Shown piece after piece: positions 19,000 through 30,980 of a stretch of DNA of 64,000 nt (within the stretch, counting starts at the first letter, position 1; each line of letters opens with the position of its first letter). Under the pieces are notes generated by a model, which had not been told where the DNA came from, searched no databases, and saw only the letters and a list, made by a program, of their open reading frames with translations. The position numbers and the translations under genes were made by a program. Source of the stretch: Methanobacteriota archaeon (GTDB taxonomy: Archaea; Halobacteriota; Bog-38; Methanoflorentales; Methanoflorentaceae); the NCBI GenBank assembly GCA_963720465.1, contig OY970393.1:800001-864000 (forward strand). Direction: 5' to 3'.

Positions 19000-19608
19000 T
19001 TACGAATTTTCTCGGCCGCCGGTTTCCCTTGTTGTGCGGTTGGTCTTCGGATCTATCGCAAGCGCCTTGTCAAAACACTGAAGCGCCTCTTCGTGGCGGT
19101 CTAACATGTCAAGCGCGTCTCCTTTGTAGTTCCACGCGTCAACATCCTGCGGGTTTATCGCGAGCGCCTTGTCGAAGCACAGAAGCGCCTCTTGGTGGCG
19201 GTCTACTTTCACAAGCGCAGTTCCTTTGTCGTTCCACGCCTTAGCATACCGCGGGTCGAGCTCGAGCACCTTATCGAGGCACTGAAGCGCCTCTTCGTGG
19301 CGGTCTAACATCCCAAGCGTAGCTCCTTTCAGAGCCCACGCCTTAGCATCCTTCGGATCGATCTCGAGCGCCTTGTCGAGACACTGAAGTGCTTCTTCGT
19401 GGCGGTCTAACATCCCAAGCGTAGCTCCTTTCAGAGTCCACGCTAAAGCATATTGCGGATCTATCGCAAGCGCCTTGTCGAAGCACAGAAGCGCCTCTGG
19501 GTGGCGACCTGACTTTGCAAGTGCATCTCCTTTGTCACACCATTCCTTCGCTGTCAACTCTTTCTGCGTTGGGGCAGTGCTCGACTTGAACCTGTCAAAT
19601 AATCCCAT
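19000..19608 (-). CDS. Tetratricopeptide repeat protein
   Basis: Five 34-aa TPRs (AWxxKGxxL...EALxCFDKALxIDP); start MGLFDRFK. Confidence 0.9.
   Translation of the reverse strand: MGLFDRFKSSTAPTQKELTAKEWCDKGDALAKSGRHPEALLCFDKALAIDPQYALAWTLKGATLGMLDRHEEALQCLDKALEIDPKDAKAWALKGATLGMLDRHEEALQCLDKVLELDPRYAKAWNDKGTALVKVDRHQEALLCFDKALAINPQDVDAWNYKGDALDMLDRHEEALQCFDKALAIDPKTNRTTRETGGRENS
19050..19545. repeat. 102-bp tandem DNA repeats encoding TPR units
   Basis: Near-identical units recur at about 19076, 19178, 19280, 19382 and 19484. Confidence 0.85.
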
Positions 19609-19948
19609 GTTGGTCGCCCAGTACATCCACGCAGGCATATTTATAATTCCTCTTTGAATTGGCAACACTGGTAGCTCACTTGCCCTCTCGGCGGATCCTT
19701 TAGCTGCTTCGCTGGGCATAAGAGAGCTTGCGCTTGTTTTCGGTCGTCCGAAGCCCAAAAAATAAGATAGATTAAGAAGTTAGGGAGTTATCAGAAACTA
19801 CCTTAGCGTGCTCGTGGCGGCTTTAGTCATTTCTCAAATCGATCATTCGTAAACAGAAACGTCCTCACGTTTACGCTCCATTATATGCTTTCGTCTAGCG
19901 CACTGGCAGCCTAATCCCGAGGGGGTCGACTTGAACCACATCAGTACA

Positions 19949-20493
19949 GTATCTCTTCAGGAGAAGCAACACGACAAGGGTGATTACGCTAGAGGAGTAT
20001 TTTCAGGAAGGGTTGCTGAGCAACATCCACTAAAACAACGATTGAAACTTGAGGGAGACAAGGCGCACATTCTACGATTAGTAAAAGACTCTGGAATGTG
20101 GGCTCTTGAACTTGTGAGACAGGAGATACTTATATTTCGTCAACGAAGGATTAAATGCCGACGATCAATACAAAAAGTTGTGGGCAATGAGCCCTGGTTT
20201 AAAAAAGGCAACGCAATAAGACCTTGACAAATCGAAGAAGTAATAGCTGACTGTTACAAGCACTGCTGATTATGAAAGGTGAATAAATGAAAGAGAGGTT
20301 ATTAGAGGTTCTTGAATTGCTCGACCATGAGAAGGAAGACCTAGACCAACTTTGTACAGACGTTTCGTTCCCTGAAACGACGCTGGCACGTTCTGCTGCG
20401 ATGACCAATAGACGGGTGCGAGAGATCGTAGAAGAAGTTCTTGAAGGTATTGAGAATGAGTGAATAAATGTAGCGATGCTGCAAAGCAATATC
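19949..20493 (+). CRISPR. Orphan CRISPR locus A: leader, 37-bp repeat (20012-20048), 429-bp insert, degenerate 5' repeat fragment (20478-20493)
   Basis: GTTGCTGAGCAACATCCACTAAAACAACGATTGAAAC, 33/37 identical to the repeat at 23620; downstream GCTGCAAAGCAATATC; leader homologous to 23556-23619. Confidence 0.7.
20287..20463 (+). CDS. Small acidic helical protein (58 aa) inside the CRISPR insert
   Basis: AAAGGTGA RBS; MKERLLEVLELLDHEKEDLDQLCTDVSFPETTLARSAAMTNRRVREIVEEVLEGIENE; too short for the supplied ORF track. Confidence 0.65.
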   Translation: MKERLLEVLELLDHEKEDLDQLCTDVSFPETTLARSAAMTNRRVREIVEEVLEGIENE

Positions 20494-20513
20494 GTGGTTG
20501 TTTACGAGAAAAC

Positions 20514-20531
20514 GAGCAGTTGCGCTTATTT
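20514..20531 (-). repeat. Dispersed 18-bp core, copy 1 (inverted orientation)
   Basis: GAGCAGTTGCGCTTATTT = reverse complement of AAATAAGCGCAACTGCTC at 29348 and 30087. Confidence 0.8.
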
Positions 20532-20917
20532 TAGTCAGCACACCTTCACCATTCACCGCCCGGCTAATAACGCTTAGACACGGCAGGCAACGCACAACCG
20601 TCAATCTGCCGCGCGGCGCGGACGGCGATAATACTCGCAGCGCGGGATGCGCTCATCATCGCCACGAAGCTTATGCCGACGAATTTGACGCACCTACGAC
20701 AGTCAATCATTGACGGCTAGTTTGATTCGCCCGTTGCATTCGTTACTATGTCCAGAGAAACTAATGATAGCTACGACTGCTTATACCGAGATTATGCCAA
20801 AAAACCACAGGCGTAGGTGCGGCTCCATTTCAGTGAGCGAATAGCAGCCGGAGGCGTTGATCTTTGCGGTCGCCTCATGCTATGTGCACAAACAACGCCC
20901 TCGCTCGCGTTTCTGGG

Positions 20918-30080: not shown

Positions 30081-30114
30081 AGCGACAAATAAGCGCAACT
30101 GCTCACTTTTTTTT
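30081..30114 (+). repeat. Dispersed repeat copy 3
   Basis: AGCGACAAATAAGCGCAACTGCTCACTTTTTTTT. Confidence 0.85.
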
Positions 30115-30260
30115 ATAAACAAAAGGTCTTCTGCATGCGGGCCTGTCTATACACTTCTTGTATTCATTTTGCGACTTTCAGGCTAAAAAAATGAAGACGC
30201 TTGTCAAGAAGTTGGGTAGAGTTATCCTTCATCTAGGTGGAGCATTCGCGTGTAAGAAGG

Positions 30261-30980
30261 ATGTCTTTTAAAGACTTGAACGGAATGAGTGCCCCCCTCG
30301 TCAGAAAGATTGGACTGCTTAAGGACTACTTAAAGGTACGTCCACACCACTCACTTCGAGAAGGCAGCAAAGTCATAGACATCGGGGGGATCTGTGAATA
30401 TTATGATTTGCTACGATCTGCAGTTAGTCCTGGTGAGCTGTACCTACTTAATATCGAACGACATAGTGTCAGAGCGTGTCAATCGATAGTCGCAAATGCG
30501 TTACAACTGCCGTTTTGCGACGAAACCTGGGATGCGGTCATATCGTTCGAGCTGGTCGAACACTTGACAGAGCCGGCAAGCTTGCTTTCGGAGGTCTCTA
30601 GAATCCTCCGAAGTGATGGATTGTTCGTTCTGTCCACCCCAAACTTGGCTGACATATACAGCCGCATTACATTTCTTTTTGGGTACAATCCTTTTAACTA
30701 TGATCCGAGCGCCTACAAATTTGGATCCCTTTCCAAGGTTGAAATTGCAGACCGAGGACACAAAAGCGTGTTAACCTTCAAGGGAATGAAAGGGCTCCTC
30801 GGCCATTATGGGTTCCGCATAGAGAAGTCCTATGGCTACTCTTATATCGAATCGCTGTACCGCAGATTAGATCCCCAAAAGGAAGAAAGGATCGGTTTCA
30901 GTAATCTACGGAGAGTACTTGGGTCAGTATTGCCCGTCTCGTTAAGTGATGGGATACTCTTCATTTGCAAAAAGGTTTGA
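30261..30980 (+). CDS. Class I SAM-dependent methyltransferase (type 11)
   Basis: VIDIGG, LPFCDETWDAVISFELVEHL, LSTPN. Confidence 0.88.
   Translation: MSFKDLNGMSAPLVRKIGLLKDYLKVRPHHSLREGSKVIDIGGICEYYDLLRSAVSPGELYLLNIERHSVRACQSIVANALQLPFCDETWDAVISFELVEHLTEPASLLSEVSRILRSDGLFVLSTPNLADIYSRITFLFGYNPFNYDPSAYKFGSLSKVEIADRGHKSVLTFKGMKGLLGHYGFRIEKSYGYSYIESLYRRLDPQKEERIGFSNLRRVLGSVLPVSLSDGILFICKKV

Follow-up and report, generated by a model that had tools for sequence, protein, structure and literature searches.

A conserved small gene in the spacer position of a probable type I-B-repeat mini-array remnant in a methanogenic archaeon

The DNA analysed here is a stretch of 64,000 nucleotides (nt), referred to as the window, from the genome of a methanogenic archaeon (G000:C1:800001-864000, where G000 is the source genome, other G numbers are relatives and L numbers are individual loci). 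The genome is a single contig of 2.31 Mb with a GC content of 0.517 (0.513 in the window), and the window encodes TBP, TFE, Hef, formylmethanofuran-tetrahydromethanopterin (H4MPT) formyltransferase and methylene-H4MPT dehydrogenase. Proteins of its relatives are named "Halobacteriota archaeon" in the source records. Two loci in the window, A and B, each hold a small protein gene bordered by repeats of the kind that build CRISPR (short palindromic repeats that are clustered and regularly interspaced) arrays. On the plus strand, locus A comprises a leader-like sequence (19880-20011), a full 37-nt repeat (R1, 20012-20048), an insert with an intact 58-codon open reading frame (ORF58, 20287-20463) and the decayed 5' half of a second repeat (20478-20494). 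Hence, an ORF58-bearing insert of ~430 bp stands in the spacer position of a probable mini-array remnant, and comparison with relatives indicates that the observation is real and beyond chance.

R1 scored 37.8 bits against the Rfam family CRISPR-DR7 (gathering score 37) and ends in the 8-nt handle ATTGAAAC. Alignment with the leaders of locus B and of the genuine array in the same genome showed that the proximal ~70 nt of the locus A leader (19940-20011) are homologous to both. Positions 19940-20061 and 23547-23668 are 80% identical, and the junction motif AAAGGAGTATTTTC is common to all three leaders. These results bear out the first-pass annotation, made without database searches, in its placing of the insert behind a repeat, which is here recognised as a CRISPR repeat with a leader-like stretch before it. 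The leader may carry a putative promoter; a TATA-like TTATATG also occurs near 19885. The genuine array (C1:2081485-2085915) contains ~60 repeats, 31/37 identical to R1 of locus A, and of the 58 stretches between them 55 measure 33-39 nt. A complete type I-B operon (Cas8b, Cas7, Cas5, Cas3, Cas6b at C1:2078844-2079497, Cas1, Cas2, Cas4) precedes it, with Csa3 beyond the array. Its repeat equals the family consensus over the last 19 nt, and R1 differs from it at two of the last 20 positions, with an identical 8-nt handle. The cas operon (C1:2.07-2.08 Mb) and loci A and B (~0.82 Mb) are 1.26 Mb apart. No cas genes adjoin locus A (the cas operon being distant; the ORFs beside loci A and B were not scanned for cas fragments), and a search of the genuine-array spacers against the genome gave no match to locus A or B and no self-targeting there. 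Three of the 58 stretches in the genuine array are oversize (C1:2081815-2081938, 124 nt; 2082047-2082129, 83 nt; 2085668-2085732, 65 nt), which may be spacers joined through a decayed repeat.

Measured against a canonical array (at least three repeats, ~30-40-nt spacers), locus A has the curated repeat family and the leader upstream of its first repeat, but a different layout, in which a 429-nt insert lies between a single full repeat and a half repeat. The insert (20049-20477) has a GC content of 0.422, in line with its earlier description as apparently more AT-rich than the core genes. Its first 78 nt (20049-20126) are conserved only in loci with the same leader-R1 arrangement and contain a 10-nt inverted repeat (20063-20072/20094-20103). 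Homology to copies in other contexts begins near 20127, where the 5' part of what we call the ORF58 cassette starts (20127-20286). This part holds the remnant of a short upstream ORF and, at 20275-20282, the ribosome-binding site (RBS) AAAGGTGA of ORF58. A 14-nt linker (20464-20477) separates the stop codon from the half repeat (GCTGCAAAGCAATATCG), which corresponds to the hairpin half of the repeat (GUUGC-NNN-GCAAC in the consensus) and lacks the 3' half, hence also the cleavage site. The half repeat has three mismatches to the terminal repeat of locus B and four to the family consensus. At up to three mismatches, this 17-mer was found five times in the window, where 0.13 matches are expected, and all five are repeat positions. 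Searches for inverted repeats at the insert ends, here and in the wider family, found none, and no transposase was among the Pfam matches; with no terminal inverted repeats, the insert does not qualify as a miniature inverted-repeat transposable element (MITE) or insertion sequence.

ORF58 is intact in 9/9 aligned genomes and is predicted to encode an acidic two-helix hairpin protein (pI 4.43; helices 2-25 and 32-56; AlphaFold predicted local distance difference test [pLDDT] 89.7). Over 53 distinct copies, conservation is 0.94 for ORF58, 0.90 for the RBS region and ~0.72 for the flanks, so that the earlier call of an intact, RBS-led acidic ORF stands. Codon periodicity was tried as a means of telling ORF58 from an antisense shadow ORF of 96 amino acids (aa), and failed. 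Third positions coincide on the two strands, so periodicity is indecisive here, and the strand of ORF58 was settled by counts of stop codons, which interrupt the sense frame in 1/51 ungapped copies and the antisense frame in 45/51. Codons changed from the consensus comprise 255 synonymous and 253 non-synonymous cases, and ORF58 is under purifying selection. Homologs form 38 clusters with 78-97% identity, all of one lineage, and a profile search of 1.84 billion representatives returned four matches, all of the ORF58 family itself. ORF58 and ORF102, the gene of locus B, are both ORFans of one archaeal lineage. Neither of the two, nor the upstream frame, nor ORF244 matched Pfam or PHROGs, and Foldseek against the PDB allowed no fold assignment for ORF58 (best E 0.76). 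In the ESM Atlas, ORF58 retrieved its own cluster, then a viral 62-aa cluster (0.86) and TscA (0.76), the latter two below trust level. Complex prediction of ORF58 with Cas7, Cas5 and Cas6b of the source genome scored 0.00, which speaks neither for nor against binding. As a guess, ORF58 could be a small regulator or an anti-defence factor.

The first-pass annotation had also described a decayed reading frame ahead of ORF58, as part of a slice of a compact virus-like operon. The translation is as quoted there, but in relatives it corresponds only to an ORF of 10-41 codons without codon periodicity. This short ORF (ATG at 20155) occurs in 27/53 copies, most commonly as a 23-codon form. In the source genome and three near-identical metagenome copies, an additional base shifts its frame and shortens it to 11 codons; that base is absent from 4/4 contigs of relatives from RNA sequencing runs. 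A 41-codon read-through, with a TAA overlapping the ATG of ORF58, was seen in L062 only. Conservation by codon position is 0.66/0.63/0.63 and 0.59/0.54/0.51 upstream versus 0.93/0.94/0.84 in ORF58. Decay thus seems to concern at most a tiny upstream ORF, with no sign of a larger gene in these alignments. Moreover, no relatives of ORF58 or ORF102 were found in a viral contig collection or in PHROGs, and no intact upstream gene was seen bar the one 41-codon read-through, so the notion of a virus-like operon lacks support.

To compare locus A with related DNA, 40 relatives were searched and aligned locally. G009 is collinear with the whole locus A region (89% identity), and the cassette (~20127-20493) was found in 10 of 17 other genomes of the genus (G001, G002, G003, G004, G008, G009, G010, G011, G012 and G014), with 80-89% DNA identity across the genus and several copies in some genomes (two in G004, three in G010). 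When metagenomes were scanned with an alignment of ORF58, 75 loci were obtained, of which 46 were distinct after removal of 8 unusable loci and 21 duplicates. The downstream repeat is a full 37 nt in 4/46 of these, a half repeat with up to three mismatches in 20/46 and a half repeat with four or five mismatches in 5/46; in 17/46 no downstream repeat could be detected. Where a downstream repeat is present, it lies exactly 14 nt after the stop codon in 25/29 loci. The majority consensus of 53 copies reads ATAAATGTATCGAT after the stop codon, followed by GTTGCAGAGCAACATCC, the exact 5' half of the repeat, so the degenerate repeat proposed earlier at this distance is well founded. In one copy (L099), ORF58 is followed by a repeat, 36 nt and a partial second repeat.

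On the upstream side there is much less constancy. A full repeat within 400 nt, as in the source genome, was found in only 6/43 distinct loci, and the upstream sequences of 22 aligned loci fall into ~10 unrelated groups among the matches listed. The conserved unit is ORF58 with its RBS, the 14-nt linker and the trailing repeat, behind many different upstream sequences. Cassette homology stops at the half repeat in different contexts, so the insert is no stretch of ordinary DNA that continues past the repeat. The 5' boundary of the cassette was also searched for a decayed repeat, but the candidate (AAGGATT, 20146-20152) was rejected, with nhmmer matches in 2/53 copies versus 4.15 in shuffled sequences. 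Judging from the contexts alone, the cassette is presumably mobile. The earlier claim of DNA captured at the repeat thus holds insofar as the cassette is a discrete, repeat-bounded unit of fixed geometry, but not as a recent capture, given the 80-89% identity across the genus. Metatranscriptome contigs from four runs of four studies cover locus A of a relative at 90-95% identity, one of them spanning 19940-22574, although such contigs inform on neither transcript ends nor processing and could derive from DNA carry-over.

A small gene followed at a fixed distance by a repeat recalls the acr-racr type of anti-CRISPR cassette. Under this explanation, ORF58 would be an anti-CRISPR (Acr)-like protein, the trailing repeat an RNA anti-CRISPR soaking up type I-B Cas6 and Cas7, and the chromosomal copies fixed or decaying remnants of such cassettes of mobile-element origin. 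The 14-nt gap is close to the 11 nt given for acrIC5-racr in the part of the source that deals with this operon (PMC10651486), the repeat matches the subtype of the source genome's own system, and a protein of 58 aa with a pI of 4.43 from a lineage-restricted ORFan would suit the role, as would an AT-rich cassette found in many upstream contexts and in multiple copies. Full-length repeats are confined to the 4/46 copies noted above, however, and most copies keep only the 5' half, without cleavage site and handle. Viral contigs do carry solitary repeats of the same superfamily (23 loci with an exact 24-nt 3' match, 20 of them single), yet the 5' halves of these have 5-11 mismatches, with one exception that has three, and no viral or PHROG relative of ORF58 accompanies them. 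The genes annotated around 10 cassette copies are diverse, chromosomal and of housekeeping type, with one weak integrase match, which also counts against the mobile-element setting supposed in the first-pass annotation. In addition, no cas genes were detected in most hosts (see below), and an upstream leader with R1 is present in no described acr-racr locus. We therefore consider an acr-racr-type cassette unlikely.

Locus B (23620-24106, plus strand) provides a second case of the same layout with an unrelated gene. Behind a proximal leader (23550-23619) stands a full repeat R1 (23620-23656; CRISPR-DR7, 37.9 bits), followed by a 37-nt 5' untranslated region (UTR) with an RBS, ORF102 (23694-24002; GTG start here, ATG in relatives), 15 nt (24003-24017), a degenerate full repeat R2 (24018-24054), a 33-nt spacer-like sequence (24055-24087) and a terminal half repeat R3' with a run of five T (24088-24106). 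The near-equal distance from stop codon to repeat in the two loci, already remarked upon in the first-pass annotation, recurs as 14 nt behind a 123-aa ORF of the sister genus. ORF102 encodes an acidic alpha/beta protein of 102 aa (pLDDT 82.6) and is clearly coding (conservation by codon position 0.93/0.95/0.82). Its homologs form 49 clusters with 69-98% identity, of the same lineage as ORF58. Fold searches gave no assignment (Foldseek against the PDB, best E 0.25; VIA-align wide, best Z 3.3), and a search of the ESM Atlas returned nothing. In nine genomes, pairwise identity is 0.41 for the distal leader, 0.73 for the proximal leader, 0.81 and 0.90 for the 5' and 3' halves of R1, 0.79 for the 5' UTR, 0.90 for ORF102 and 0.54 for the trailer. 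Leader, R1 and 5' UTR (0.73-0.90) are thus far better kept than other intergenic DNA at the locus (0.41-0.54). The last 8 nt of R1 (ATTGAAAC) are retained in 8/9 genomes, and its first 10 nt are decayed in 5/9. Just upstream of the proximal leader, 23382-23544 is repeated at C1:948734-948895 and also occurs in G022, G011 and G005.

All parts of locus B are kept in the alignment of G000, G009, G002 and G011, including the 33-nt sequence; conservation across four species shows that the latter is not an adaptive spacer. R2 and R3' are fused in 4/9 genomes (G010, G014, G001 and G013), and a half repeat and trailer of the locus B type stand behind ORF58 in G014, G002, G001 and G010. The two-repeat unit of locus B (R2, 33 nt, R3'; 24018-24106), with its conserved and thus non-adaptive spacer, raises the possibility of a CreTA-like addiction module, in which the small ORF would act as the toxin and Cascade, guided by a crRNA-like RNA (crRNA, CRISPR RNA) from the mini-array, would repress it, so that loss of cas genes would kill the cell. 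L099 carries a comparable unit behind ORF58, but locus A of the source genome has none. The complementary decay of repeats described below matches creA genes, and short hydrophobic peptides (33 and 59 aa) are among the embedded ORFs of the sister genus. A guide function, on the other hand, found no target: seed matches of the 33-nt sequence in loci A and B reached at best 9/12, the same as in random regions, a genome-wide seed search gave no match near a relevant promoter, and the first 36 nt after each R1, taken as a guide, also had no target. Furthermore, 1.26 Mb separate the loci from the cas operon, and the cassettes occur in hosts without detected Cas6b, Cas1 or Cas7, where an addiction module should not survive. 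This explanation is accordingly very improbable. The 33-nt sequence does match C1:302279-302311, within a 486-aa ORF, at 25/33 positions (estimated chance E ~0.01).

A leader-repeat site empty of ORF58, for which the first-pass annotation had suggested looking in sister genomes, was found in two of them. The TPR gene and distal leader that flank locus A lead, in both G011 and G002, directly into a locus-B-type proximal leader, R1 and ORF102. ORF58 has another position in these genomes (230 kb off in G011, a different contig in G002) and is followed there by the half repeat and trailer that stand behind locus B in the source genome. Approximately 3.6 kb (roughly 19950-23549) of the source genome and G009 thus have no counterpart between the leader and ORF102 of G011 and G002. 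The junctions of this difference lie in leader and repeat sequence, which points to a rearrangement, in one direction or the other, through leader or repeat homology.

A rearrangement hot spot of this kind, with several indels and the multi-copy segments 20560-20804 and 20833-20900 close by, would also be expected of neutral debris, that is, of an old second array that decayed after cas loss, into or next to which ordinary rearrangement in a highly variable region placed unrelated small genes and other DNA, and whose repeats have no present role. The loss of the repeat in 17/46 distinct copies, the collapse of R2 and R3 of locus B into one in 4/9 genomes and the failure to detect cas genes in most of the family agree with such decay. 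Chance juxtaposition, however, would hardly yield a 14-nt spacing in 25/29 loci and nearly the same spacing for two unrelated genes, nor cassette homology that ends at the repeat in different contexts. Likewise, the leader, R1 and 5' UTR of locus B would not be expected to be much better conserved than nearby intergenic DNA, and the occurrence, in three genomes, of at least six different inserts with ORFs between repeats is difficult to attribute to accident. Debris without function therefore appears unlikely.

In the wider family, the 19-nt 3' part of the repeat was found at up to two mismatches in 17/24 genomes (0-1 matches per genome for a reversed-pattern control). In G007, a homologous leader heads a canonical array of 16 repeats beside a true Cas3 (241.7 bits). 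In G022, a single-contig genome of the sister genus, 28 repeat matches are mostly solitary, but two small arrays alternate 34-37-nt spacers with long inserts. The first, beside a cas3 fragment, reads R-36-R-37-R-[67-aa ORF]-R-37-R-[123-aa ORF]-R (R, repeat; numbers, spacer lengths in nt), and the second R-37-R-35-R-[33-aa peptide]-R-34-R. The first insert (~270 nt) contains an RBS, a 67-aa ORF with a CxxC...CxxC pattern and a hairpin; in the second (424 nt), the stop codon of the 123-aa ORF lies 14 nt ahead of the next repeat; and the third (268 nt) encodes a hydrophobic peptide of 33 aa. In G021, a 59-aa membrane ORF stands between two repeats. Besides that of ORF58, the mutually unrelated ORF-bearing inserts between repeats comprise that of ORF102, three in the sister genus and two more open-frame inserts in another sister-genus genome. 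Pfam returned nothing above threshold for five small ORFs of G022 and G021 that are embedded in arrays or adjacent to repeats.

In G022 and G018, some ordinary genes also have a full solitary repeat 24-74 nt ahead of them. For example, a gene for a 267-aa S-adenosylmethionine (SAM) methyltransferase is preceded at 55-56 nt by a solitary repeat (L112 and L120 of G022; L130 of G018); repeat and 45-nt upstream sequence are conserved in both species, and a truncated gene lies behind the second G022 copy. Genes for a PEMT-like membrane protein and for secreted proteins likewise have solitary repeats ahead of them. Cas genes are scarce in the family: Cas6b (protein query and PF17262) was detected in 1/24 family genomes, the source genome only, PF01881 Cas6 in 0/24, Cas1 in 2/24 (source genome and G018) and Cas7 (TIGR01595) in 0/5 chosen genomes. 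Most family genomes are incomplete, and the single contigs G011 and G022 have ~90% marker completeness. Since cassettes persist where no cas genes were found, a role strictly needing Cas proteins in the present hosts is argued against; such persistence is compatible with an exapted leader and repeat serving as promoter and 5' UTR.

Taken together, we favour, with moderate confidence, the reading that locus A is a relic or exapted mini-array of type I-B repeats (leader, first repeat and terminal half repeat) that houses a small-gene cassette. It belongs to a recurrent pattern of ORF-bearing inserts in the arrays of this family that, as far as we found, has not been described, and the pattern hints that arrays can house small genes. 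The genes may have entered between the repeats of still active arrays, through recombination at repeats, in which an insert is excised with one repeat and re-enters at a different one, or through the integration of oversize fragments. Decay of the arrays would have come later, as cas genes were lost. Transcription of locus A would run in array direction and start at the promoter of the leader or at one within the cassette. In the source genome, Cas6b should then cut R1 8 nt from its end, leaving an ORF58 mRNA with a crRNA-type 5' handle, and the hairpin of the trailing half repeat could form a 3' handle or the 3' end of the mRNA. In relatives without detected cas genes, the part left to leader and repeat would be that of promoter and 5' UTR alone. 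The decay of the repeats is complementary in a way that could suit such a scheme, with upstream repeats keeping the 3' end and downstream repeats of both cassettes keeping the 5' half.

Several observations weigh against this reading. Terminal repeats of ordinary arrays also decay at the 3' end, so that complementary decay is suggestive only. Of the distinct cassette copies, 17/46 have no detectable repeat, and the half repeat of the source genome, with four mismatches to the consensus, would be weak if taken alone. The folding energy of the hairpin in the repeat 5' half (z -1.6) is no different from that of shuffled sequences. With no repeat remnant detected at the 5' boundary of the cassette, a simple model of repeat-to-repeat excision is hypothetical. 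Detection of Cas6b in 1/24 and Cas1 in 2/24 genomes implies no Cas6 processing in most hosts, and the layout may be a fossil. The orientation of the gene would be indecisive by longest ORF alone, with antisense frames of 69-96 aa also open. A bolder proposal, which we regard as unlikely and put forward tentatively, is that arrays of this family are integron-like platforms, in which small genes installed as oversize "spacers" along the direction of array transcription would be expressed from the leader within the pre-crRNA and released by Cas6b as repeat-bounded mRNAs with an 8-nt 5' handle, the ORF and a hairpin 3' handle, leader and repeat being exapted as promoter and 5' UTR after cas loss. 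If this were true, small-gene expression would be coupled to the CRISPR system.

The surroundings of the two loci show further repetition. Next to the locus A leader, the TPR gene (19000-19758, minus strand) contains four 102-nt tandem units (19045-19551) with 75-79% identity, and TPR paralogs with similar upstream regions flank related loci in relatives. Just after locus A, 20560-20804 and 20833-20900 are multi-copy in the genome (e.g., C1:1600032-1600277, 1163382, 1166879 and 1445936) and in relatives, and may be MITE-like elements; in G011, the segment 20560-20804 is inverted and lies just after locus B. An exact 18-mer, GAGCAGTTGCGCTTATTT, has three copies in the genome, all within the window (20514-20531, plus strand; 29348-29365 and 30087-30104, minus strand), where a reversed-pattern control gave 0 matches. 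One copy begins 20 nt after the locus A half repeat, the two minus-strand copies are preceded by an A-run on that strand, and that at 30087-30104 lies ~130 nt upstream of a methyltransferase gene (30237-30980). A gene for a secreted protein with an Ig-like (Big_3_5) domain (20918-22196, minus strand) is present as overlapping ORFs (20918-21709 and 21408-22196). A close relative has a single 419-aa ORF in its place (L036:3638-4894), and the split gene is probably a frameshifted pseudogene. Within it, contigs of relatives from RNA runs differ by single bases at 21672 and have a gap of 18 nt at 21222. At 27874-27938, a 21-nt unit (GAAGATTGAGGAGCTTGAGGTGA family) stands in three tandem copies.

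Orphan arrays, solitary repeats and mini-arrays are already known. What appears to be new is the combination of conserved protein genes in spacer position, a fixed stop-to-repeat spacing, complementary repeat decay and unrelated genes in two genera; a search of full-text literature, with incomplete coverage and supplements not included, gave no description of protein genes between CRISPR repeats. If functional, these loci would represent a new use of CRISPR leaders, repeats and Cas6 in mRNA expression or processing, possibly also a new route of gene capture, and would provide a way into two ORFan protein families with a possible part in the defence or counter-defence of uncultured peat methanogens. 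If they are debris, they illustrate how arrays decay after cas loss and warn that array finders miss such loci.

Integron gene cassettes offer an analogy, being small genes with a 3' recombination-site-like element, arranged in one orientation on a common promoter-bearing platform and found in varying contexts. The loci described here differ in having no integron integrase and no attC, the repeated element being a CRISPR repeat. Virus-borne mini-CRISPR arrays and solitary repeat units, reportedly the subject of work by Medvedeva and colleagues and by Faure and colleagues in 2019, resemble them in having one or two repeats away from cas genes, and the viral solitary repeats share the same 24-nt 3' end; unlike these, loci A and B show no sign of lying on a virus, and no viral relatives of their proteins were found. 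Regulatory mini-arrays and standalone repeats are likewise repeat-like sequences off the main array that are conserved between relatives, at least in the sections of a preprint that treat them (Shmakov et al. 2023, PMC10120712). There, a mini-array is defined as a pair of repeats separated by 15-60 bp, inside or beside cas loci, and repeat-like sequences outside arrays in types I and III are termed "anecdotal"; ORF-bearing inserts that measure hundreds of bases and lie far from cas genes fall outside that definition.

In the CreTA systems of type I-B haloarchaea, as far as the portions of the source on creA describe them (Cheng et al. 2021, PMC8501985), creA RNA is cut by Cas6 to leave an 8-nt 5' handle and a 3' handle, and the repeats decay in complementary fashion. 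Likeness lies in the I-B subtype, in the degenerate, CRISPR-derived two-repeat unit, whose upstream repeat keeps the 8-nt handle and whose downstream repeat keeps the 5' part, and in the conserved 33-nt spacer-like sequence of locus B. By the same portions, creA has a spacer of ~30-40 nt that pairs with the promoter of the toxin through its seed (nt 1-5 and 7-11), lies in or beside the cas operon, has no leader and controls a toxin that is a tiny RNA, whereas the loci studied here have a 360-430-nt protein gene between repeats, no target found, a leader, and a position far from cas. The acr-racr operon has the closest published geometry: in acrIC5-racr, a solitary repeat stands 11 nt after the acr gene and is co-transcribed with it, according to the relevant section of Camara-Wilpert et al. 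(2023, PMC10651486). Both there and here, a gene for a small, acidic, lineage-restricted protein is followed within 11-15 nt by a same-strand repeat of the host subtype. In the acr-racr loci that this section covers, the setting is a prophage or plasmid, whereas the present cassettes are chromosomal, conserved across a genus and mostly in hosts without detected cas genes; they often end in a half repeat only, have a leader and first repeat upstream in the source genome, and would have an anti-CRISPR role only hypothetically.

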